Assembly (NCBI GenBank): GCA_039908535.1
Contig: JAMOAW010000027.1
Span: 10,705-74,704 of the forward strand
Direction of reading: 5' to 3'
Length of the DNA stretch: 64,000 nucleotides
From: Magnetococcus sp. DMHC-6
GTDB taxonomy: Bacteria > Pseudomonadota > Magnetococcia > Magnetococcales > JADFZT01
The notes below the pieces were generated by a model. The model was not told the origin of the DNA, made no database searches, and saw nothing but the letters and a program-made list of their open reading frames with translations. Position numbers and translations under genes: made by a program. Shown here piece after piece: positions 1 through 30,647 of the stretch; within the stretch, counting starts at the first letter, position 1; the number at the start of each line of letters is the position of its first letter.

Positions 1-68
1 ATAGCAAAGGGTATCGAGTCTCTCATTTCACTGGCAGCGAGATACTTTATTTTTTTTGTTGGTTTTTT

Positions 69-914
69 ATGCAAGATCACGATCAAAAAGGCTCACTTTT
101 ATTGGATTGGATGCCGCCTGGATATAATCCACGTCACTATTTTGAGGAGGATGGGGAGTATCTGACCGACATCTCTTTTGCGGGTCATATGTCACCCCCT
201 TGGACCCGTAGGGAATTGGATCGGGTGATCTATTCCGATTCAGAATGGGGGACGCTCAAGTTTGAGGAGGTGGCCACTTGGGTTGAGCAGGATTTGCACG
301 GCCGCGACACTACAGGTTGGGGGTTGAACGCTTATTTGGATCACTCTTTGGCGTATATTGCCGCCAGGATTGGAAAAGTTGTGGAGCCTGACCTGACCAT
401 TCAGTATGATTTGAGTCAGCGTCTTTATCTGCGGATGGCTCGACGGCACAAGCTGCTGAATGGCGTGATGGCCATGAATCCCATGCCTACTCTGACAATC
501 CATGGGACACATGGTTGGGGGAAGTGGCCAGAGTATGCCCCTTATTATCGGGGGTATCTGGATGAACCTACGGCGTTGCGTCGGCTTTATCGCACCTCTC
601 GCATTAATTTGCATGAAGGTCCTGGTGTCCATTTTCGTAGCCTGGATTGCATGGCATCGGGGGGGGTGCTTTTTTTTATGGAAACGCCAGAGGATGTCTC
701 TCTGGGAAGATTGGAGAGCATCTTTCAACCTGATGTTCATTACATACATTTTACTCCAGAAAATTTTGCCGAAAAGGCGACCAAACTTCTGGAAAATCCG
801 GTTAATCTGCGTCAGATTGCGGCTAATGCTGCCCAGGAAGTACGTCAACGGCATACATGGCGTCATCGTGCCGAGAAAATTCGTGAAGATTTACTTCATA
901 TATTGGAACAATAA
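69..914 (+). CDS. Glycosyltransferase-like protein (CgeB / Glyco_trans_1_2-type C-terminal domain)
   Basis: 281-aa ORF with ATG start. The C-terminal half (INLHEGPGVHFRSLDCMASGGVLFF...IHFTPENFAEKATKLLENP...RQRHTWRHRAEKI) resembles, from memory, the CgeB-type GT domain. It sits in a sugar-modification cluster. Confidence 0.45.
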   Translation: MQDHDQKGSLLLDWMPPGYNPRHYFEEDGEYLTDISFAGHMSPPWTRRELDRVIYSDSEWGTLKFEEVATWVEQDLHGRDTTGWGLNAYLDHSLAYIAARIGKVVEPDLTIQYDLSQRLYLRMARRHKLLNGVMAMNPMPTLTIHGTHGWGKWPEYAPYYRGYLDEPTALRRLYRTSRINLHEGPGVHFRSLDCMASGGVLFFMETPEDVSLGRLESIFQPDVHYIHFTPENFAEKATKLLENPVNLRQIAANAAQEVRQRHTWRHRAEKIREDLLHILEQ

Positions 915-918
915 AAAT

Positions 919-1008
919 TAGGACCTTGGGTAGCGGAGAACCGCTACCCAATCCCCCCTCTTTATTTTTTAGGGATTCTGGGGGATTCATCCCCCAGGGT
1001 TTTGTTTT
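919..1008. repeat. Hairpin-repeat locus R1 (degenerate core A-B-C, forward)
   Basis: ggaccttgggtagcggagaaccgctacccaa ... ctgggggattcatcccccagggttttg. Same order and orientation as the cores at the other loci. Confidence 0.8.
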
Positions 1009-1062
1009 CCAAAGAATGGCGCAGATTTTTATTCACTTTAACTGATAAAAAGTTCAAAAGAT

Positions 1063-2190
1063 ATGAGCGATCAAATTGAATATTACCTTAAAATTCAACC
1101 TTTTCAGAGAGATGTCGCTGATCTGAAACTTTTTTTAAATCGTCGTAGTGCGCTTTATAGGCATTTGGGGATTGTTCCTAAATTTATTTTTCAACAATCG
1201 ATCTTGGAGTTTGGTCCTGGGTTTGGCGAAAATGCCATTTTTCCACTGTTGCAAAAACCGAGTCGATATCTGTTCGTCGATGCCATTGAAAATTGCCTGG
1301 AAAAAACCAGAGAGCGGCTCACCTCTCTCTCTTTTTCAGAAACTCAGCTGGAATATCGGTTAAGTTCTATTGAAAATTTTATGAGTACAGAGCTTTTTGA
1401 TTTGGTGATATGTGAAAGTGTCATTCCTCGTGAACCACAACCGGAAATATTATTGGCCAAGGTGGCGGAATCGGTGTCTATTGGGGGGGTGTTGGTGATT
1501 ACCTGTCAGGATCCGGTATCGACCTTTGCCGAACTGCTTCGTCGTTTATTGGCTCTTCTGGTTGTCGATCCTGAGGAGTCCTTGGAAGCAAAATTAAAAC
1601 GGTTGTTGCCTCTGTTTGATCCCCATCTCAAGACCATCCAAGGCATGACGCGCTCAAGTTCGGATTGGATCTTGGATAATCTTCTGAGACCTTGGGAAAG
1701 TGCCTCTTTTTCGATTCCTGATGCCATTCACACCTTGAAAGATCGGTTTGATATCCATGGCACCTCTCCACGTTTTATCCTTGATAGTCGTTGGTTTAGA
1801 ACGATTCATGAGGAGGATTTTGGGTTTCATGCGGTAGCTGAAAAGAGCTATTATGCCAATGTGCATAATCTTATCAATCATCGGGTTTGGACACCCTCTA
1901 TTTCGGAACAGCTCAATAAAACGCTTCTTGAACTCTGTTCTAAAATATTTCAGGAGATTCAAGCCTTTGAAGAACAACGGGATCGTCAGTTGGTGTGGTC
2001 TTTGTTGGGGGATTTGCAACAGGTGATCGATTTGGCTGCAATTTTTTCTGAGGATACCGAACGGGCTTTGCGGGATTATCATCGTGTTTTGCAAAAATAT
2101 TTGCAAGAAGGGGTGTTGGATCCTTTTGTTGAATTTGCGCCTCTCTTTGGACGTGGTCAGCAGTATGTGAGTTTTATTCGTCGTTGTTGA
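1063..2190 (+). CDS. Class I SAM-dependent methyltransferase
   Basis: 375-aa ORF. Motif I-like ILEFGPGFGENA, followed by a DLVICESV acidic/hydrophobic motif. Confidence 0.6.
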   Translation: MSDQIEYYLKIQPFQRDVADLKLFLNRRSALYRHLGIVPKFIFQQSILEFGPGFGENAIFPLLQKPSRYLFVDAIENCLEKTRERLTSLSFSETQLEYRLSSIENFMSTELFDLVICESVIPREPQPEILLAKVAESVSIGGVLVITCQDPVSTFAELLRRLLALLVVDPEESLEAKLKRLLPLFDPHLKTIQGMTRSSSDWILDNLLRPWESASFSIPDAIHTLKDRFDIHGTSPRFILDSRWFRTIHEEDFGFHAVAEKSYYANVHNLINHRVWTPSISEQLNKTLLELCSKIFQEIQAFEEQRDRQLVWSLLGDLQQVIDLAAIFSEDTERALRDYHRVLQKYLQEGVLDPFVEFAPLFGRGQQYVSFIRRC

Positions 2191-2195
2191 AAAAT

Positions 2196-2343
2196 GAAAA
2201 TCAAGACCTTGGGGGCCCAGAACCGCCCCCCAATTCCCCCCACCTTTTTTTTTAATTCTTAAAAAAAAGAGGGGGTCTGGGGGATTCATCCCCCAGGGTT
2301 TGGCCTTTGATTTTTTTTTGCCCGAAGGGCATCATGTTCGAAT
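2196..2343. repeat. Hairpin-repeat locus R2 (core A-B-C + F module)
   Basis: aagaccttggggg..ccgccccccaattcccccc-T9-aattctt-A8-gagggggtctgggggattcatcccccaggg, followed by ttgcccgaagggcatcatgttcg. Lies between convergent genes. Confidence 0.9.
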
Positions 2344-2345
2344 GA

Positions 2346-3491
2346 TTATGACCAAGGAAAGTTTTGTAGGGCGGCAATGACGTGATCTACCTGTGAATCG
2401 GTCATTTCAGGATAAATGGGTAATGATAAAACCTCCTTGGCAATGCGTTCGGTCTGCGGTAGCTGGATATTTTTAAAAGGTAGGGCGGCTTGCTGGTGGA
2501 GAGGTGGCCACCAATGGGCCATGGTTTCCACCCCTTGGCGGCGTAGATGGTTGGCCAGGCGGTCCCGTTCTGGGTAGCGAATGACGTAAGAGTTAAAAAT
2601 ATCCCAATAGGGGGTGTTTTTCTCCTCTGGGGAAGGGGGGAGGCGGATGGCCGTGATGTTTTGTAAACCGGCGCAATAGCAGCGGGCAATATGTCGTCTA
2701 CGCTCCAGAAAAAATGGTAAATGGTCGAACCGTTCCAGTAGAATGGCGGCTTGCAGGGTATCCAGTCGACTGTTGTAGCCATATTGAATCAGGTGGGTTT
2801 TGTTTTCGAGGCCATGGTTGCGCAATAGGCGTATTTGGCGGGCTATGTGCGGGTCGTTGGTGGTGACCAATCCGCCATCACCACAGCAGGCCAAGACTTT
2901 CATTGGATGAAAACTGAAGGCCCCTGCCAAACCAAAACTACCGGCATGTCGACCTTCATAGCAGGCACCAAAGGCTTGGGCGGCATCTTCTATCACCACC
3001 AAGTTGTGTTGTTGCGCGATTTTTAAAATAGGTGTCATGGGACAGCATCGCCCGTTGAGATGAACCGGGATGATGCCACGGGTTTGTGGGGTGATGGCTT
3101 TTTCTAACTGGTTTGGATCCATGGTAAAATTTTGATCGATATCGACTAAAATGGGGGTAGCCCCACAGCGATGGATGGCGGCTAAGGTGGCGACAAAGGT
3201 ATGGGCAACGGTAATCACCTCATCTGCGGGACCAATTCCCGCCGCTTGCAGAGCAAAATAAATGGCATCGCTGCCATTGCCAACGCCAATGGCATGGTCC
3301 ACACCGAGAAAATCGGCCGATTTTTTTTCAAGTTCTTCTACTTCATCTCGCAAAATTAACCGGGCATCGGCACAGACATCTTCCATGCGCGCTAAAAGGG
3401 CGTGTCGATGTTGTTGAAAGGCCAAGCGCATATCAATATAGGGAACCTGCCATTTTGGCGTGGAAGAGAGATTTTGTGGGGAATCGGTCAT
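2346..3491 (-). CDS. DegT/DnrJ/EryC1/StrS-family PLP-dependent sugar aminotransferase
   Basis: 381 aa. Family-typical GNGSDAIYFALQA, DAAQAFGA, and SFHPMKVL containing the PLP lysine. Confidence 0.85.
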   Translation of the reverse strand: MTDSPQNLSSTPKWQVPYIDMRLAFQQHRHALLARMEDVCADARLILRDEVEELEKKSADFLGVDHAIGVGNGSDAIYFALQAAGIGPADEVITVAHTFVATLAAIHRCGATPILVDIDQNFTMDPNQLEKAITPQTRGIIPVHLNGRCCPMTPILKIAQQHNLVVIEDAAQAFGACYEGRHAGSFGLAGAFSFHPMKVLACCGDGGLVTTNDPHIARQIRLLRNHGLENKTHLIQYGYNSRLDTLQAAILLERFDHLPFFLERRRHIARCYCAGLQNITAIRLPPSPEEKNTPYWDIFNSYVIRYPERDRLANHLRRQGVETMAHWWPPLHQQAALPFKNIQLPQTERIAKEVLSLPIYPEMTDSQVDHVIAALQNFPWS

Positions 3492-3615
3492 TTTGTTTTC
3501 TTGTCTGGTTAGGTTGTGTGAACGGATGCGGTGGGTGTAGATTGCTACCCTTATAGATTTTCTGCTATATGTTACGTTTTATAAATTCAGTTTGCAAGTT
3601 TGCAGGGGAGAATTT

Positions 3616-3886
3616 ATACCAATTTGCGTTCAATAAGGTATTATTGGAGGGGTCCGGGAAGCGTCACGCTCCCCGGCGGGTTTGGAGGCAGAGCCTCCAA
3701 GGTCTTGTTTTTAATTTTTCCCATAGGCGTGATGTTTACGACAAAATTAAGACCTTGGGGGGCGGAGAACCGCCCCCCAACTCCCCCCACCCTTTTTTTT
3801 TAAATCTTAAAAAAAAGAGGGGGTCTGGGGATTCATCCCCCAGGGTTTTGTTTTTTATTTTTTACCCGCAGGGCATCATGTTCGAT
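3616..3886. repeat. Hairpin-repeat locus R3 (inverted outer module + core A-B-C + F)
   Basis: 3616-3748 is the reverse complement of the outer part of R10 (ataccaatttgcgttcaataaggtattattggagggg..ccggggagcgtgacgctccccgg..ttggaggcagagcctccaa). 3749-3850 is a near-perfect core. Lies in a divergent intergenic region. Confidence 0.9.
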
Positions 3887-3928
3887 AAACAGAAGAATTG
3901 GGTTATTGTTGGGAGTGTGAGTTAAGCT

Positions 3929-4909
3929 ATGGAGGAACTATCTGGTTATTCGTTGGATTTGCCTGCGTTGTATTATGGCATGTTGCGTATTCGTCGTATT
4001 GAAGAGGCTATCGCCAAGCGATACGTTGAACAGGAAATGCGTTGTCCGGTTCATCTGTGTATTGGTGAAGAGGCGGTGGCCGTCGGGGTATGTCACGCCT
4101 TGACACCACAGGATGTGGTTTTTGGCAACCATCGTTCCCATGGCCATTTTTTGGCCAAGGGGGGGTGTTTAAATCGTATGATGGCAGAGATTTATGGCAA
4201 AGCCAGTGGATGTTGCGGTGGTCGGGGGGGGTCTATGCATTTGATAGACCAAGAAGCGGGTTTTTTGGGTGCGGTCCCCATCGTGGGTGGAACAGTGCCA
4301 TTGGCGGTTGGGGCGGCTTGGGCGGCGCAACTGAGAAGGGAAAATCGGGTTGCGGTTGTCTTTTTTGGCGATGGTTGCTTTGAAGAGGGGGTCCTCCACG
4401 AATCAATGAATTTTGCCGCTTTAAAAAAACTGCCCGTTTTGTTTGTCTGTGAAAATAATCGCTTGTCGGTTTATACCCGCATTGAAGAGCGTCAACCCGA
4501 CCGTCCGATCCATGCCATTGCTGCGGCCCATGGGCTTGGGGTTTGGTGTGGGGATGGCAATGATGTTGAAACGGTGGCCAGGCAGGCGGGTTCAGCGGTT
4601 GCTCTGGCGCGTCAAGGTGAGGGACCGCAATTTTTAGAGTTTATGACCGATCGTTGGTTGGGGCATGTTGGGCCAGACTTTGACGATGACTTAGGCTACC
4701 GTCCCAATGAGTGCCAAGCAGATCGGTTGCAACGCTGTCCTCTCAAACGGGCTGGAGCTACCTTGGAACGGCAGTTTGGCTGGAAGGCAGAAAAATTTGC
4801 CGCCCTGGAGGCCTTGATTCAGGAGGAGGTGGCGCAGGCTTGGCGTTTTGTTCGGGAGAGTCCAAATCCCAATCCACAGACCAGGGGAGATTTTTCCTAT
4901 GCAGAGTGA
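3929..4909 (+). CDS. Thiamine-diphosphate-dependent 2-oxoacid dehydrogenase E1 component, alpha subunit-like
   Basis: 326 aa. TPP motif GDG-x(25)-NN (FFGDGCFEEG...LFVCENN). Paired with a beta subunit directly downstream. Confidence 0.8.
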   Translation: MEELSGYSLDLPALYYGMLRIRRIEEAIAKRYVEQEMRCPVHLCIGEEAVAVGVCHALTPQDVVFGNHRSHGHFLAKGGCLNRMMAEIYGKASGCCGGRGGSMHLIDQEAGFLGAVPIVGGTVPLAVGAAWAAQLRRENRVAVVFFGDGCFEEGVLHESMNFAALKKLPVLFVCENNRLSVYTRIEERQPDRPIHAIAAAHGLGVWCGDGNDVETVARQAGSAVALARQGEGPQFLEFMTDRWLGHVGPDFDDDLGYRPNECQADRLQRCPLKRAGATLERQFGWKAEKFAALEALIQEEVAQAWRFVRESPNPNPQTRGDFSYAE

Positions 4910-5987
4910 ATCAGCTATGGAACAAGAGATAACCTTTGCCCAAGCGATCCAGGAGGGATTGCGACAAGCCATGGAGCGTTATCCAGAGGTGATGGTGATG
5001 GGGGAGGGTGTTCCTGATCCAAAAAACATTTTTAAAACCACCGAAGGCTTAAGAGCACTTTTTGGTGGTGATCGGGTTTTGGATATGCCCCTGGCGGAAA
5101 ATGGCATGACCGGGGTTTGTATTGGTTTGGCCTTATCGGGATTTCGACCGGTATTGGTGCACCAACGTGTCGATTTTGCTCTTCTTTCTATGGATCAACT
5201 GATTAATAATGCCGCTAAATGGCACTATGTGTTTAATGGTCAGGTCACGGTTCCCCTGGTGGTGCGTTTATTGATTGGTCGCGGTTGGGGGCAAGGCCCC
5301 CAGCATGCGCAAAGTTTGCAGGCCTTGTTTGCGCATATTCCTGGTTTAAAGGTGGTGATGCCAACAACGCCTCGGGATGCCAAGGGGATGTTGATTCGGG
5401 CCATTTGTGACAATAATCCGGTGTTGTTTTTAGAGCATCGCTGGCTGCATGGTTTAAAGGGGAGGGTGCCTATGGGATATTATGAGACCTCTTTAGATCA
5501 AGCGCAGATTTTGCGTACCGGTGGTGCTGTCACGGTGGCGACCTTTTCTTATATGACGATTGAGGCCCTGGCGGTGGCAGATGTTTTGGCCGATTTTGGG
5601 GTAGAGGTTACGATTATCGACATGCGTTCGGCCCGACCTATGGACATGCAACCGGTTTTGGCCTCTCTTCAAAAGACGGGACGGTTGCTTGTTTTGGATA
5701 CGGGTTGGGCTTCGTGTGGGGTGAGTGCTGAATTATTGGCTCGTGTTGTTGAGCAGGGGTTTGCCTCTCTACGTTGTCCCCCATTGCGTATTACTTTGCC
5801 AGACCATCCCGTACCCACCGCTGAATATTTGACCAATGATTATTATCCCGATGGGGAAGATATTTTGCGTGGCATTCTTAAATTGGTGGATGCTGATCGA
5901 AGCTGGCCCTTGGAGGCACTTTTGCAAAGGGTGCGTTTGACTGGCCATCGGGATGTTCCCAATCCGGCTTTTGTGGGGCCGTTTTAA
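4899..5987 (+). CDS. E1 component beta subunit-like (transketolase-like pyrimidine-binding and C-terminal domains)
   Basis: The ORF track starts at 4848. The ATG at 4899 (MQSESAMEQEITFAQAI..GEGV) overlaps the alpha-subunit stop by 11 nt and matches typical E1-beta N-termini. Confidence 0.8.
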   Translation: MQSESAMEQEITFAQAIQEGLRQAMERYPEVMVMGEGVPDPKNIFKTTEGLRALFGGDRVLDMPLAENGMTGVCIGLALSGFRPVLVHQRVDFALLSMDQLINNAAKWHYVFNGQVTVPLVVRLLIGRGWGQGPQHAQSLQALFAHIPGLKVVMPTTPRDAKGMLIRAICDNNPVLFLEHRWLHGLKGRVPMGYYETSLDQAQILRTGGAVTVATFSYMTIEALAVADVLADFGVEVTIIDMRSARPMDMQPVLASLQKTGRLLVLDTGWASCGVSAELLARVVEQGFASLRCPPLRITLPDHPVPTAEYLTNDYYPDGEDILRGILKLVDADRSWPLEALLQRVRLTGHRDVPNPAFVGPF

Positions 5988-6004
5988 CCTGTAGGGATAA
6001 AATA

Positions 6005-7033
6005 ATGGATCATCACATGCGCATTTCCAAACCCATTGCCGTTGTGACCGGTGGAGCTGGATTTATCGGCAGTCATATGAACGATTTATTGCTGGATGAG
6101 GGATATCGGGTTCGGGTTGTGGACAATCTCTCTGGAGGACATGTGGGCAATTTGGCTCATCATGCCAATAATCCCGATTTAACTTTGGAAGAGCGGGACA
6201 TTTGCACGGTTTCTCCGCAGGATGGGGTGTTTAAAGGGGCGCGACTGGTGATCCATTTCGCTGGGATTGGCGATATTATTCCTTCAATTGAAGCCCCACT
6301 GGATTATATGTCTACCAATGTGCAGGGGACAATACGGGTTTTGGAGGGGGCGCGTTGGGCTGGTGTCGATAAATTTGTCTATGCGGCCTCCTCTTCTTGT
6401 TATGGTTTGGCGACCACCCCCACCCGTGAGGATCATCCGGTTGCGCCGCAATATCCATATGCTTTGAGTAAAAATTTGGGTGAACAAGCGGTTTTTCATT
6501 GGCATCAGGTCTATCGTTTGCCTGTGAATTCGTTGCGTATTTTTAATGCTTATGGTACCCGAGTACGGACAACGGGTGCTTATGGGGCCGTGTTTGGGGT
6601 GTTTTTTAAACAAAAGTTGGCTGGATTGCCTTTTACAGTGGTTGGTGATGGTCTCCAGAGTCGGGATTTTATTTATGTAACGGATGTGGCGGCGGCTTTT
6701 TATGCAGCGGCCAAGAGTACCTATTCTGGAAAGATTTATAATCTTGGAGCGGGTGCCCCGCAGACCATTTTGCGTTTGGTGGAGCTGTTGGGTGGGGATT
6801 GGATCTCTATTCCCAAACGGCCTGGGGAACCAGATTGTACCTGGGCCGATATCGGTAAGATCACCCGTGAGCTGGGTTGGAGACCGCAGGTCGATTTTGC
6901 CGCTGGAGTGGCAAAAATGGTCGCTGAAATTGAAAATTGGCGGGATGCGCCGCTTTGGGATCCCGATTCCATTGCTATGGCGACTCAAACTTGGTTTAAA
7001 TATTTGCATAAAGATTCGAACATCGCCTCTTAA
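6005..7033 (+). CDS. NAD-dependent sugar epimerase/dehydratase (extended SDR)
   Basis: 342 aa. Rossmann motif VTGGAGFIGSH and catalytic YxxxK (YALSK). Confidence 0.85.
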   Translation: MDHHMRISKPIAVVTGGAGFIGSHMNDLLLDEGYRVRVVDNLSGGHVGNLAHHANNPDLTLEERDICTVSPQDGVFKGARLVIHFAGIGDIIPSIEAPLDYMSTNVQGTIRVLEGARWAGVDKFVYAASSSCYGLATTPTREDHPVAPQYPYALSKNLGEQAVFHWHQVYRLPVNSLRIFNAYGTRVRTTGAYGAVFGVFFKQKLAGLPFTVVGDGLQSRDFIYVTDVAAAFYAAAKSTYSGKIYNLGAGAPQTILRLVELLGGDWISIPKRPGEPDCTWADIGKITRELGWRPQVDFAAGVAKMVAEIENWRDAPLWDPDSIAMATQTWFKYLHKDSNIAS

Positions 7034-7040
7034 ATCAATA

Positions 7041-7292
7041 TCTGGGTGGGCGGAGAACCGCCCCCCAGACCCCCTCTTTTTTTTAAGTCTTAAAAAAAAG
7101 AGGGGGTCTGGGGGATTCATCCCCCAGGGTTTTGATTTTGTAACCGTTCAGATAAAAAAATCAAAAACAAGACCTTGGGGGATTGCATCCCCCAACCCCC
7201 CTGCTATTTGAAGAAAGCAAAACCGAATTCAAAAGCAAAGTCAAAAGCAAAGTCAAACCCCTGGGGGCAATCCCCCAGACCCCTTTTTTTTA
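7041..7292. repeat. Hairpin-repeat locus R4 (core A-B-C followed by an E-D-C' element)
   Basis: Core at 7041-7135. 7166-7285 (aagaccttgggggattgcatcccccaa ... ctgggggcaatcccccag) is the reverse complement of the C'-D-E stretch seen in R5, R6 and R9. Confidence 0.9.
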
Positions 7293-7315
7293 TTAATATA
7301 TGAACGTTGGTCTCC

Positions 7316-7348
7316 AAAAAGCCTGCCTTTTGTGCAGGCTTTTTTTTA
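7316..7348 (+). terminator. Rho-independent terminator (bidirectional shape)
   Basis: aaaaaGCCTGCcttttgtGCAGGCtttttttt. Lies downstream of repeat locus R4 and the epimerase gene. Confidence 0.7.
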
Positions 7349-7466
7349 TGGAAATATGGGCTGGCATCCATTTTTTCTCTCAAGTCGAGAAAAGAAAATC
7401 CGATAAAAAGAATAAGTGTATTTTTACCTATTTTCTCTAAAGGTCAAATGGCCTGTTTAAATTTAT

Positions 7467-7493
7467 TCAAGTCCAAGCCATCACAGCCGATAA
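7467..7493 (+). promoter_or_regulatory. Candidate sigma-28 (FliA) promoter upstream of the first flagellin
   Basis: TCAA-N15-GCCGATAA against the consensus TAAA-N15-GCCGATAA (-10 element 8/8, -35 element 3/4). It would give a ~230-nt leader. Confidence 0.4.
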
Positions 7494-7671
7494 ATAGAAT
7501 AGGGTAGATTTTATCTAAATCAAGGCAAGGAGAGCTATAAGAAGAGTCTCAGAGAAATAATTGTGAATGATATTGGTAAGTGCAGATGGTAAAGGCATGT
7601 TTTATTGTCCTTGTTATTTTAGCTAAAAAACGGGTTGGACTGGCCCTTTAAAATGAACAGTTCATCATGCC

Positions 7672-7723
7672 AAGGAAGGGTGTCTGAAAAAAAATTTTCA
7701 GACTAACTTTGATTTTTAGGAGG
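7672..7723 (+). promoter_or_regulatory. Flagellin 5' leader: GGA motif, hairpin, GGA-containing SD (CsrA-type two-site layout)
   Basis: AAGGAAGG at 7672-7679, hairpin gtctgaaaa/ttttcagac at 7682-7703, AGGAGG at 7718-7723, ATG at 7732. The block is conserved upstream of the paralog at 8635-8681. Confidence 0.4.
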
Positions 7724-8577: not shown

Positions 8578-8634
8578 TTGGTGGTGCTGGAGAATGGGTT
8601 GGGTCGACCATTTAAAATGAATGGCCTATAAATA

Positions 8635-8681
8635 CCAAGGAAGGTTGTCTGTTTGTTTGCAGACTCATTTTTTGATAGGAG
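8635..8681 (+). promoter_or_regulatory. Flagellin 5' leader (paralogous to 7672-7723)
   Basis: ccAAGGAAGG at 8635-8644, hairpin gtctg..cagac at 8647-8664, AGGAG at 8677-8681, ATG at 8691. Confidence 0.4.
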
Positions 8682-18019: not shown

Positions 18020-18505
18020 ATGGAGATTCATGGGACGCGGTTTGGAACGTTGACGTACCAAAAAGAGGATATCATTCAGATGGAAGACGGATTGTTGGGG
18101 TTTCCGTTGAGCAAACGTTATTTGCTTTTTCCATATTCAGAAGAGTCTTCATTTTTTTGGCTTCAGTCTATTGATGAACCAGAAATTGCTTTTATTGTTG
18201 TCAATCCATTTGAGTTTTTCGCCGATTTAGAAATAGTCATAGAAGATCATGACGCGATCGCGATTGAACTGAAAAACCAGGAGGATGTGGAGTTGTTCAG
18301 CCTAGTGATCATCCCGGAGGGCAAACCGGAAGAGATGCGCACCAATTTGGCTGGCCCCGTGGTCGTGAATGCCACGAATCGCAAAGGACGGCAGATTTTA
18401 TTGAAGGATTATTCACCACGCCAACCGTTGATACCAGATAACATGCGGGAGAGTTATCGGAGGGAAAAACTGTTGGTCCCCAATCGTAGAATGGCTCAAA
18501 AGTAA
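18020..18505 (+). CDS. fliW: Flagellar assembly factor FliW (copy 2)
   Basis: MEIHGTRFGTLTYQKEDIIQMEDGLLGFP... is collinear with copy 1. The track ORF starts at a TTG at 17828, but its first 64 aa have no counterpart in copy 1. Confidence 0.85.
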   Translation: MEIHGTRFGTLTYQKEDIIQMEDGLLGFPLSKRYLLFPYSEESSFFWLQSIDEPEIAFIVVNPFEFFADLEIVIEDHDAIAIELKNQEDVELFSLVIIPEGKPEEMRTNLAGPVVVNATNRKGRQILLKDYSPRQPLIPDNMRESYRREKLLVPNRRMAQK

Positions 18506-18602: not shown

Positions 18603-19433
18603 ATGCCGCTTTTTATTAATACCAATGTTGCTTCGTTAAATGCGCAGCGCAATTTGAACAAGTCAACCGGCGAACTGGGCAAAACTTTTGCTCGTTTGGC
18701 CTCTGGTCTTCGGATTAATTCGGCCAAAGACGACGCCGCTGGGATGGCCATTAGTACTCGTATGACTTCGCAGATTCGTGGATTGAGTCAGGCTTCTAGA
18801 AACGCCAATGATGGTATTTCCCTGATTCAGGTTGCGGACGGTGCTCTTGAAGAGACGACCAATGCCTTGCAAAGAATTCGTGAATTGGCGGTTCAGGCTG
18901 CGAATGGTACTTACAACTCTACCGACCGTGCCGATCTGCAAAAAGAGGTTGATCAACTTCTTTTTGAAGTGGATCGGATTTCCACAGACGTAGAGTTTAA
19001 CAACAAAAAATTGCTTTTGGGTACGAGTATTCGCAGTGTTGATTTTCAGATAGGCGATAAAGAAAATCAGACGATTGAAATCACGATCACCAGTTGTGAT
19101 ACGAGGGCTTTGCTTGGATTAACTAGCGCGAATGTGACTATTATCACAGCTTCTGATGCGGGGATGGCCTTGACGCAGTTGACTAAAGCTTTGGACAGTG
19201 TGACAACAATACGGGCCACCTTGGGTGCGGCGCAGAATCGTTTTGAAGCGGTGATCAATAATCTTTCGAACGTGGTGGAGAATATTTCAGCAGCTCGTTC
19301 GCGGATTGTGGATGCCGATATTGCCGCTGAAACGGCGACATTGACACGCAATGCCATTTTGCAACAGGCTGGAACAGCGGTTTTGGCTCAGGCCAATCAG
19401 CAGCCACAGTTGGCTTTGCAGTTGCTTGGCTAA
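18603..19433 (+). CDS. fliC: Flagellin (276 aa)
   Basis: Flagellin N- and C-terminal conserved blocks. Differs from the 281-aa pair in the central region. Confidence 0.95.
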   Translation: MPLFINTNVASLNAQRNLNKSTGELGKTFARLASGLRINSAKDDAAGMAISTRMTSQIRGLSQASRNANDGISLIQVADGALEETTNALQRIRELAVQAANGTYNSTDRADLQKEVDQLLFEVDRISTDVEFNNKKLLLGTSIRSVDFQIGDKENQTIEITITSCDTRALLGLTSANVTIITASDAGMALTQLTKALDSVTTIRATLGAAQNRFEAVINNLSNVVENISAARSRIVDADIAAETATLTRNAILQQAGTAVLAQANQQPQLALQLLG

Positions 19434-27183: not shown

Positions 27184-27633
27184 ATGCAAACCGAGTCGAT
27201 TGCGTCTCGGTTGGCGCAGGTGGCTCGAGTGGGGTTGGTGGTGGCGTTGGAGGGGGATTTGGGGGCGGGGAAAACCGTCTTTGCCCGTGGGTTTGTGCAT
27301 GGCATGGGGGTGGCGGATCCCTATGTCACCAGTCCGACATTTACCTTGCTCAATCCCTATTTGGAAGGCAAAATGCCCGTCTACCACTTCGATTTTTATC
27401 GGCTAGAATCCCCCGAAGAGTTGATTCAGATCGGGGCAGAGGGGTATTTGGGCACCGATGGGGTGGCCTTAGTGGAATGGCCAAGTCGGGCTGGAGATTG
27501 GATTCCTGCAGATCATCTGCGGGTGGTCTTGACATTTCGGGATGAGGAGCCTGACAAACGTTGGATCGAATTTCGGGCAACTGGCGGGCATAGCAATATG
27601 ATTTTGGCCGATTTTTGCCATTTGGAGGCATAG
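27184..27633 (+). CDS. tsaE: tRNA t6A biosynthesis ATPase TsaE (YjeE)
   Basis: GDLGAGKTVFARG..., VTSPTFTLLNPY, YHFDFYRL motifs. Start uncertain (TTG at 27136 in the track; ATG at 27184 preferred). Confidence 0.8.
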   Translation: MQTESIASRLAQVARVGLVVALEGDLGAGKTVFARGFVHGMGVADPYVTSPTFTLLNPYLEGKMPVYHFDFYRLESPEELIQIGAEGYLGTDGVALVEWPSRAGDWIPADHLRVVLTFRDEEPDKRWIEFRATGGHSNMILADFCHLEA

Positions 27634-27635
27634 AG

Positions 27636-28642
27636 ATGAAGGATCAACCCCCCTCTTTATTAAAACCAGAGGCTTGGCGTTTTCTGCTGGAGATCCTTGG
27701 GACCGATATAACCGTGGCACGCGCCTCTGAGGATGCCTCGTTTCGGAGTTATTATCGGGTTAGAATTCATGGTGGGAACTCTTTTATTTTAATGGATGCC
27801 CCACCAACTCATGAAGATGTCCGACCTTTTGTGGATATTGGCCGTTTTTTGTTTGAGCATGGGGTAAGTGTCCCCAAAATTTTAGCACAAAACGTGGAAA
27901 CTGGTCATCTTTTATTGGAAGATTTTGGTGATCAGACCTTTTTAAAAGCCTTGGCTGCGGGAGTCGAGGCCGAGGGGTTGTATCGACGGGCTGTGGAAAC
28001 CCTGGTCACCCTGCAGGCGACTCCATGGGACCACACCTGTTTAGCCCACTCCCGTCCCTATGATCGAGAATTATTGCATAGAGAATTGGCATTGTTTACC
28101 GATTGGTATGTGGAAGGGATTCTCAAGCGGCCCATCTCCCCTTCGGATCGGCAGCAGTTTGAGATGGTTTTTGCCGTGTTAATGGAGAATATTTTAGCTC
28201 AACCGGTCTGCTTGGTGCATCGGGATTATCACAGCCGCAATCTGATGTGGTGTGCGGGAGAGCGGGTTGGGGTGTTGGATTTTCAAGATGCGGTGATGGG
28301 ACCGGTGACCTATGATTTAGCCAGTCTGTTGCGGGATTGTTATGTGGCTTGGGAGGCCCCTTTTCGCAAAAGAGTGCAGAGGTATTGGTTGGAACATGCC
28401 CAGGATCCCTGGCACTATGGCCAGGATTGGTCTCGATTTGAGAAAGATTTTGATTGGATGGCCCTGCAGCGCAATCTTAAAGCGGTGGGAATTTTTGGCC
28501 GTCTCTCGTTGCGGGATGGCAAACATGGTTATTTGGCCGACATTCCCCGCACTCTGGGGTATGTCTGGGAGGTTTTACCCCGTTATCCGCAGTTAGAGCC
28601 GTTGCACGATCTGTTACAACGGTATATAGCGAGAGTAGAAGC

Positions 28643-28646
<4 letters not shown>
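27636..28646 (+). CDS. amgK: Aminoglycoside-phosphotransferase-fold sugar kinase (AmgK-like anomeric MurNAc/GlcNAc kinase)
   Basis: HRDYHSRNLM catalytic loop and DFQDA. GGAGG RBS before the ATG at 27636. The recalled tsaE-amgK-murU synteny supports the call. Confidence 0.6.

Positions 28647-30647
<2,001 letters not shown>

Follow-up and report, generated by a model that had tools for sequence, protein, structure and literature searches.

The 5' end of a 64,000-nt stretch of DNA from Magnetococcus sp. DMHC-6 (hereafter the window) carries genes for a glycosyltransferase (GT), an S-adenosylmethionine (SAM)-dependent methyltransferase, a DegT-type sugar aminotransferase, the alpha and beta subunits of an E1-type enzyme dependent on thiamine diphosphate (ThDP), and an extended short-chain dehydrogenase/reductase (SDR), all in its first ~7 kb (Table 1). 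We read these genes as the part of a glycan-biosynthesis island that falls inside the window. The six sugar-type genes had been listed in an earlier note on this DNA; all are present, and annotation with hidden Markov models confirmed their families, with strong matches for every gene except the methyltransferase, for which the Pfam matches were weak and Methyltransf_11 alone scored above its cutoff. The genes for E1alpha, E1beta, and the SDR are closely packed, and the end of E1alpha and the beginning of E1beta share 11 nt. They form a translationally coupled operon with a divergent DegT gene, and the methyltransferase and PF13524 GT genes flank this core. All six genes are thus not one operon; DegT is encoded on the minus strand.

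The GT gene is cut at its 5' end by the window edge. Its reading frame has no stop codon as far back as base 3, and alignment with homologues of 378–390 aa begins at about their residue 85. A start at position 69 was rejected because the frame extends to base 3, which places the N-terminus beyond the window edge. The GT gene, and possibly the island too, therefore continues outside the window. A scan of metagenomes with the GT gave no match. For the aminotransferase the top NCBIfam model was PseC, with a score under its cutoff. The best model for the SDR was GalE, and its ASSSCYG motif stands where 4,6-dehydratases have (S/T)xDE, the motif that marks NDP-hexose 4,6-dehydratases. A Pfam scan of all window open reading frames (ORFs) of at least 150 aa detected no E2, no E3, no Maf, and no pseudaminic or legionaminic acid (Pse/Leg) synthase in the 64 kb, and a tblastn search of the window with a genuine E2 gave no match. 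The lack of E2 and E3 partners noted earlier is borne out within the window. The accompanying statement on Maf and Pse/Leg synthase also stands for these 64 kb; absence from the island cannot be claimed, since the window cuts the island and statements of the "not visible" kind carry little weight.

The E1alpha and E1beta proteins are 100% identical to database records P0001 and P0121, respectively. The beta subunit starts at 4899 (the NCBI call, giving 362 aa) or 4920, and not at 4848. The pair shares its fold, domain order, and ThDP motif with the alpha2beta2 E1 enzymes of the pyruvate dehydrogenase (PDH), branched-chain, and acetoin systems, and the ThDP machinery is intact, including GDG...NN, alpha His246, and the equivalents of the catalytic beta Glu59 and beta His128, which are invariant (for the roles of the two beta residues and the alpha His see PMC2663715). 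The best PDB matches were human PDH E1alpha and G. stearothermophilus E1beta. Both subunits nevertheless score below the PDH equivalog cutoffs (E1alpha 277.3 vs. 393.85 for TIGR03182; E1beta 287.5 vs. 321 for NF006667).

A C-terminal extension of E1beta sets these enzymes apart from dehydrogenase E1s. The extension is 31–37 aa long and ends in D-x-P-x3-F-x-G-P-F in 47 of 48 clade members, the single exception being cut by a contig end; the window E1beta carries it (...HRDVPNPAFVGPF). The tail is missing from the PDH E1beta of G. stearothermophilus and from every outgroup sequence, which end 3–13 residues past the shared core. In an alignment of 37 E1beta sequences D345, P347, G353, P354, and F355 were invariant. 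In a neighbor-joining tree calculated from core columns only, the tail-bearing E1beta sequences formed one clade, with the window sequence nested among Magnetococcales. The tail is thus a simple sequence marker by which such enzymes can be told from true dehydrogenase E1s. An AlphaFold2 monomer model of E1beta had an overall pLDDT of 85.5, with values of 54–73 for the last 15 residues of the tail, which in this model probably need the partner subunit. The alpha subunits of the clade have invariants of their own near the cofactor site: E152 in GDGxxE (Asn, Gln, or His in the outgroup) and G248, two residues after the catalytic His. Judged from the alignment, both may shape acceptor specificity. 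Glu285 of the G. stearothermophilus E1beta, a putative contact of the E2-binding domain, was also considered as a test of E2-independence and dropped as not diagnostic: the equivalent residue is Arg in the window protein, Lys or Arg in most of the clade, Lys in most of the outgroup, and Glu in none of the outgroup.

The genomic setting of the pair was surveyed in 80 species-level GTDB loci and 80 metagenome loci (~165 loci overall; related stretches in GTDB numbered at least 585). ORFs of the GTDB loci were clustered and recurrent clusters annotated, ignoring antisense ORF artefacts of high-GC loci (clusters 5, 20, and 25). An E1beta 44–70% identical to that of the window was found in 62 of the 80 GTDB loci, none of which (0/62) carries an E2. 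About 45 of these 62 encode a reversed HldE-like protein of ~507 aa, in which a cytidylyltransferase-like domain at the N-terminus precedes a PfkB kinase at the C-terminus, and many also encode a GmhA-like SIS protein, an SDR of the window type (~55% identical), and one or two radical-SAM (rSAM)/SPASM proteins. The canonical order of this cassette is rSAM-SDR-SIS-HldE-like-E1alpha-E1beta-(small ORF)-rSAM. At 34–39% E1beta identity the sugar genes are gone, and a true E2, complete with lipoyl, E3-binding, and catalytic domains, is encoded in four of these loci. The metagenome loci showed the same pattern. Across the ~165 loci no E2 was found beside a clade member, by a search that does detect E2 beside the four distant relatives, and sugar genes adjoin the clade pairs nearly always. 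The pair is a member of a separate clade of heterodimeric ThDP enzymes that has no E2 partner, bears the beta tail, and lies in clusters of sugar-nucleotide and glycosyltransferase genes. The earlier note had exposed its reading to two comparisons, the neighborhoods of the pair in related genomes and its possible clustering with E2-linked dehydrogenases. In the first, the pair occurs without E2 and within sugar clusters; in the second, it clusters apart from E2-linked relatives, which have no tail.

The clade is spread over Pseudomonadota, Nitrospirota, Omnitrophota, Actinomycetota, Chlamydiota, and other phyla. Its cultured carriers include Sulfurimicrobium lacus, Varunaivibrio sulfuroxidans, Methylomonas spp., Methylobacter tundripaludum SV96, and Nisaea nitritireducens. 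In several Magnetococcales loci E1alpha and E1beta are fused in one ORF of 688–720 aa; such natural fusions would be convenient for structure prediction or expression. Many cassettes contain a small ORF (111–128 aa, no family match) between E1beta and the downstream rSAM gene (L002 12077-12454, L167 11121-11456), which is not present in the window. Some clade loci hold up to three ThDP systems, namely the E1 pair, a split transketolase, and an acetolactate synthase (ALS)-like enzyme (L001/L032 14763-17563; L049, L051, L054, L055, L060, L065, L082), together with methyltransferases, a zinc alcohol dehydrogenase, and B12 radical-SAM enzymes; this gene content hints at repeated two-carbon additions or heavy tailoring.

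Close relatives link the window genes to one another. In the Magnetococcales locus L172 (E1beta 70% identical) an operon E1alpha-E1beta-DegT-SDR is followed by two B12 rSAM genes and a GT; its DegT, directly downstream of E1beta, is 62% identical to that of the window, and this arrangement in a close relative places DegT in the same pathway as the E1 pair. Locus L170 (E1beta 72%) has E1alpha-E1beta followed by a convergent gene for a 633-aa protein with an N-terminal tetratricopeptide repeat (TPR) region and a C-terminal PF13524 domain. Locus L030 combines an rSAM gene, a fused E1alpha-E1beta gene, an SDR 74% identical to that of the window, and an HldE-like gene, and in Methylomonas sp. TEB the full cassette is joined by a DegT 50% identical and a GT 30% identical to those of the window. 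These four arrangements group E1alpha, E1beta, DegT, the SDR, and the PF13524 GT into one set. GTs of 378–390 aa encoded near the E1 pair in Methylomonas and in a gammaproteobacterial metagenome-assembled genome (L021, L022, L024, L033) are 30–35% identical to the window GT; for the GT of S. lacus the value is 35%. The methyltransferase had no homologue in the GTDB loci and a single metagenome match (L143, 29% identity). By sequence identity the window SDR is the orthologue of the cassette SDR, and of the cassette partners it alone occurs in the 64 kb. The island as seen in the window is a rearranged subset that lacks the HldE-like, SIS, and rSAM genes, which may be encoded beyond the 5' edge of the window or at another place in the genome.

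The E2-less clade and the sugar-gene setting together make it most likely that the E1 pair adds a two-carbon piece to a sugar; we thus predict an E2-independent, ThDP-dependent two-carbon transfer. The pair would decarboxylate pyruvate to hydroxyethylidene-ThDP, and the hydroxyethylidene unit, rather than being passed to a lipoyl arm, would be added to the carbonyl carbon of a sugar intermediate in an acyloin-type carboligation, giving a sugar with a two-carbon branch or extension. DegT would then aminate a keto group, the methyltransferase would methylate the product, and the GT would transfer the finished sugar to an acceptor. In Magnetococcus sp. DMHC-6 this acceptor would most likely be flagellin, which is the least secure step of the scheme. 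The account as a whole (an island whose E1 pair adds a two-carbon unit to a sugar that is then aminated, methylated, and transferred, most likely to flagellin) is in our judgment fairly probable. Of the two-carbon branched sugar proposed in the earlier note, an E2-less E1 pair in a sugar context and a DegT of the same pathway have held up; a 4,6-dehydratase was not found, and chain extension is as plausible as branching. The usual partners of the clade suggest a heptose-type or other non-standard sugar.

A number of observations weigh against this account, some of them bearing on the chemistry and others on the target. No 4,6-dehydratase that could provide a 4-ketosugar is encoded in the island, and as its GalE-type SDR lacks the Asp-Glu pair of those enzymes, an avilamycin-type route via a 4-keto-6-deoxyhexose is not evident. 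No sugar nucleotidyltransferase could be assigned to the island, and no HldE-like, SIS, or rSAM gene is present in the 64-kb window; the pathway is incomplete as seen, the island being cut by the window edge. The catalytic His residues used for lipoyl acylation are retained, so that sequence alone does not exclude a lipoyl acceptor. To our knowledge no enzyme of the tail-bearing clade, and none of the actinomycete E1 pairs, has been reconstituted, and we infer the chemistry. As to the target, no flagellin gene lies within 10 kb of the pair in any of the 160 surveyed loci (80 GTDB and 80 metagenome). The cassettes of Varunaivibrio, Sulfuricaulis, and Nitrosomonadaceae, like those of most relatives, are located in polysaccharide loci (GT2, GT4, WecA-like, Wzm/Wzt), and the cassette also occurs in Chlamydiae and Omnitrophota, which we take to be mostly non-flagellated. 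The window GT aligns to proteins of 380–390 aa without TPR, a length that leaves no room for a TPR flagellin-binding domain, and no Maf domain was detected. No sigma-28-like promoter was found before the sugar genes in a crude consensus test.

The target-related points serve equally the explanation that the same chemistry acts on another acceptor, such as a surface polysaccharide, the lipopolysaccharide (LPS) O-antigen, a capsule, or the flagellar-sheath glycoprotein, the proximity to flagellins being incidental. The island had been described as lying directly 5' of the flagellin genes and its position was taken to suggest flagellin glycosylation. The adjacency is real (SDR end 7033, fliC1 start 7732); the target was read from position alone, and terminators lie between. 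The 700-bp gap contains repeat hairpins, an intrinsic terminator, and two sigma-28-like promoters, which make the flagellins separate transcription units, and the repeat elements suggest a rearranged mosaic. In the related strain MO-1 the flagellar sheath is itself a glycoprotein (PMC7175107), in keeping with such an acceptor; in favor of flagellin, all 14 flagellins of that strain have been reported to be highly glycosylated (PMC7175107). The incidental-proximity explanation is opposed by the fact that the island abuts a flagellar region of 40 kb, by the absence of lipid-carrier and export genes (Wzx/Wzy, Wzm/Wzt, WecA) from the window, and by the independent case of S. lacus, in which the order is FliD-FlaG-flagellin-[methyltransferase/GT2]-rSAM-GT9-rSAM-E1alpha-E1beta-rSAM-PF13524 GT with no unrelated gene between flagellin and cluster. 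The window and S. lacus are the only two flagellin-adjacent cases among ~165 loci; as one of them is the locus that prompted the survey, this frequency is near chance by our estimate, and the co-localization was treated as weak evidence. FlmG, a flagellin transferase, combines TPR and GT domains (PMC7591256). Proteins with TPR and PF13524 domains occur in relatives only, beside E1 genes in Magnetococcales; FlmG-like by architecture, they speak for the flagellin link. We therefore hold flagellin as the target of the sugar to be a tentative assignment, and an acceptor other than flagellin to be a serious contender, itself somewhat short of probable.

Less well placed is the possibility that the pair builds the sugar skeleton before activation. 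A two-carbon unit would be passed from a 2-oxoacid to an aldose phosphate in the manner of 1-deoxyxylulose-5-phosphate synthase (DXS) or transketolase, followed by GmhA-like isomerization and HldE-like phosphorylation and nucleotidylation. Most other clade loci, though not the window, resemble the ADP-L-glycero-D-manno-heptose pathway (GmhA, HldE, HldD) in having GmhA-like, kinase/nucleotidyltransferase, and extended SDR genes; the kinase/nucleotidyltransferase is the most constant neighbor of the E1 pair, usually with the SIS isomerase, and the S. lacus E1 cluster adds a family-9 heptosyltransferase-like GT. The clade differs from the heptose pathway in the reversed domain order of its HldE-like protein (nucleotidyltransferase N-terminal, PfkB C-terminal), in the lack of GmhB, and in the scores of its GmhA-like and HldE-like partners, which fall far below the equivalog cutoffs; such divergence from LPS GmhA and HldE would be expected for a non-standard substrate. 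The loci with a split transketolase and an ALS-like ThDP enzyme, and the fact that no 4,6-dehydratase is conserved with the E1 pair, also fit skeleton building. However, the E1 pair is accompanied by DegT, SDR, and GT genes in the window, L170, L172, and S. lacus although none of these has a SIS or HldE-like gene nearby, the SDR being the only heptose-pathway-type gene in the window. Furthermore, a 1-deoxyketose derived from pyruvate should not be isomerizable to an aldose by a GmhA-type enzyme. On balance, skeleton building ahead of activation appears rather unlikely, and two-carbon addition to a sugar followed by amination, methylation, and transfer remains our preferred account.

Two further alternatives concern the reaction itself. 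The recurrent pairing of E1 and DegT (DegT at least 36% identical to that of the window in ~10 of 80 GTDB and ~10 of 80 metagenome loci, and in one operon in L172) would suit a non-oxidative decarboxylase of a sugar-derived 2-oxoacid whose released aldehyde or ketone is aminated by DegT, as with phosphonopyruvate decarboxylase and its transaminase; most clade loci, however, have no DegT, no ulosonic-acid synthase is conserved with the pair, and E1-type enzymes are not known to us to release aldehydes efficiently, which makes this reading very improbable. Hardly credible is an ordinary pyruvate, acetoin, or branched-chain 2-oxoacid dehydrogenase E1 with E2 and E3 encoded elsewhere in the genome, since, despite best models that are PDH E1alpha and E1beta, conserved catalytic Glu and His, relatives named "acetoin dehydrogenase" in databases, and an E2/E3 search that covered the 64-kb window of the genome, the pair has sub-cutoff scores, a clade and tail of its own with alpha E152 and G248, no E2 or E3 beside it, sugar genes nearly always next to it, and DegT in one operon with it in L172.

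The avilamycin precedent named in the earlier note is real. AviB1/AviB2 of avilamycin and Pau11/Pau12 (= Plm8/Plm9) of paulomycin biosynthesis in Streptomyces are orphan E1 pairs proposed on genetic grounds to attach a two-carbon chain from pyruvate to a 4-ketosugar (PMC4425429, PMC4753412, PMC4802897). AviB1/AviB2 (AAK83190/1) and Pau11/Pau12 are 34–37% identical to each other (PMC4425429). The Magnetococcus pair is like them in gene content (an E1alpha/E1beta pair without E2 or E3 in a sugar cluster), in proposed chemistry, and in size, Pau11 having 325 aa vs. 326 aa for the window E1alpha. Pau12 differs, with 345 aa vs. 355–362 aa for the window E1beta. The actinomycete pairs act in dTDP-6-deoxyhexose pathways with a 4,6-dehydratase and serve antibiotic decoration, whereas the window has a GalE-type SDR and DegT and no such dehydratase, and the clade in general has GmhA-like, HldE-like, and radical-SAM partners in surface-glycan loci of Gram-negatives and candidate phyla. 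A two-carbon branch has been demonstrated for YerE of Yersinia pseudotuberculosis (yersiniose A), a ThDP enzyme that transfers it from pyruvate to a nucleotide-bound 4-ketosugar (cited in PMC4753412). YerE resembles the clade in placing a ThDP-dependent two-carbon branch on a Gram-negative surface-glycan sugar, as we infer here, and differs in being a single-chain ALS-like flavoprotein, not an E1 heterodimer and unrelated to the window pair. ALS-like genes occur beside some clade members and not in the window. Flagellin glycosylation islands (Maf with Pse/Leg, or Caulobacter FlmG) also have sugar genes beside flagellins, and relatives of the Magnetococcus pair have TPR-GT proteins with the FlmG architecture (PMC7591256). 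The window differs from those islands in that Maf, a Pse/Leg synthase, and a CMP-sugar synthetase are all absent from it, its GT carries no TPR, and its sugar genes have no flagellar promoter.

Orphan E1 pairs are already known from the sugar pathways of a few actinomycete antibiotics. What is new here is a large and taxonomically broad clade with a diagnostic tail, a different set of conserved partners, and a location in surface-glycan, occasionally flagellin, loci; a literature search returned nothing relevant on E1 pairs that accompany flagellin glycosylation or heptose genes. Annotation pipelines label the clade genes "pyruvate/acetoin dehydrogenase E1" or "alpha-ketoacid dehydrogenase subunit beta", and these dehydrogenase labels misdescribe what the genes do in hundreds of bacteria, environmental as well as cultured. 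If the proposed chemistry is correct, E1-type ThDP enzymes would be a general tool for carbon-carbon bond formation on sugars, beyond a few Streptomyces antibiotics, and the cassette would point to an undescribed sugar that nitrifiers, methanotrophs, sulfur oxidizers, and magnetotactic bacteria carry on O-antigens, capsules, or flagella. The broadest form of this proposal is that the tail-bearing heterodimers are a large class of sugar-modifying ThDP carboligases in hundreds of species, building with HldE-like and rSAM partners an undescribed two-carbon-branched or chain-extended higher sugar, an aminated and methylated version of which is placed on Magnetococcus and Sulfurimicrobium flagellin by a route that uses neither Maf nor Pse/Leg; taken together we regard it as doubtful. 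The cultured carriers make the question testable, and the tail is a target for mutagenesis.

Table 1. Features of the Magnetococcus sp. DMHC-6 window and fused E1 genes of related loci (positions in the window unless a locus is named)
Feature	Position	Strand	Remarks
Glycosyltransferase, PF13524 Glyco_trans_1_2 (CgeB-like)	3..914	+	E=9e-19; ~85 N-terminal residues missing
REP/MITE-like repeat	914..1008		Two GC-rich hairpins
SAM-dependent methyltransferase, 375 aa	1063..2190	+	N-terminal class-I fold; C-terminal half matches no family
REP/MITE-like repeat	2190..2320		
DegT/DnrJ/EryC1 sugar aminotransferase, 381 aa	2346..3491	-	E=3e-109; pyridoxal-phosphate lysine in SFHPMK
REP/MITE-like repeats	3681..3866		DegT/E1 divergent intergenic region
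E1alpha (ThDP/PP domain), 326 aa	3929..4909	+	E1_dh E=4e-59; GDG...NN ThDP motif; active-site His246
E1alpha residues 152 and 248	~4382-4384 and ~4670-4672		
E1beta (PYR and C-terminal domain), 362 aa	4899..5987	+	Transket_pyr and Transketolase_C
E1beta clade-specific C-terminal extension	5880..5984	+	Ends RDVPNPAFVGPF
Extended SDR, GalE-type, 342 aa	6005..7033	+	Epimerase E=3e-54; motifs ASSSCYG, YALSK
Repeat hairpins (7031-7300) and intrinsic terminator (stem 7320-7340, T-run to 7347)	7031..7347		Ends E1-SDR operon
Two sigma-28-like promoters, TCAAGTCN-N11-NCCGATAA	7380..7493 (7380-7406, 7467-7493)	+	Upstream of fliC1
Flagellin 1 (fliC1), 281 aa	7732..8577	+	
Flagellin 2 (fliC2), 281 aa	8691..9536	+	
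Further repeat copies	9546-9820; also ~30801 and ~48333		
FliW genes, two	14510-15088 and 17828-18505		
Flagellin, 833 aa	15126-17627		Giant paralogue
Fourth flagellin	18603-19433		
Fused E1alpha-E1beta ORFs	L029 102-2168; L030 2865-4958; L035 9899-12061; L040 9935-12061		

Nearly every intergenic gap of the island is occupied by a palindromic element of ~120 nt with two GC-rich hairpins (core GGGGGATTCATCCCCCAGGG), similar to repetitive extragenic palindromes (REP) or miniature inverted-repeat transposable elements (MITE). Four of the six exact hairpin cores of the window fall in its first 7.2 kb, all in the same orientation. An Rfam scan of the window gave no family match, so that the repeats contain no riboswitch or known RNA of that collection. 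The count of terminator-like structures in the window (29 vs. 15.6 expected) is inflated by these elements. A 118-aa ORF in the DegT/E1 gap (3569-3925) coincides along its whole length with repeat elements and in all likelihood is no real gene.

The two sigma-28-like promoters of fliC1 have an unusual -35 element, TCAAGTC. The heptamer CCGATAA occurs 21 times in the window, against an expectation of 7.25, and flagellar genes start shortly after several of these copies; other sites are at 17677, 19463, 26321, 40959(-), and 41315(-). The flagellar region of ~40 kb begins at flagellins 1 and 2 and continues with FlgK/L, two FliW, and FliD, then FlgN, FlgI, FlgH, FlgA, FlgG, and FlgF. Two flagellin genes had been placed 3' of the island, which is correct for 7732 and 8691; the window total is four, not two. 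Four flagellin paralogues and two FliW genes fit the many-flagellin pattern of Magnetococcus and control of the FliW/CsrA type. The genes fliC1 and fliC2 share a 5' leader (7622-7700 and 8586-8664) in which GGGTTGG..TTTAAAATGAA is followed by CCAAGGAAGG and a short hairpin just before the Shine-Dalgarno sequence; its GGA-rich motif could be a putative CsrA binding site.

A gene pair for an APH-family kinase and an NTP-transferase (AmgK/MurU-like; 27615-29344) is located between the genes for TsaE and adenylosuccinate lyase. It includes the sole candidate for a sugar-1-phosphate nucleotidyltransferase in the window, and probably belongs to housekeeping cell-wall recycling.

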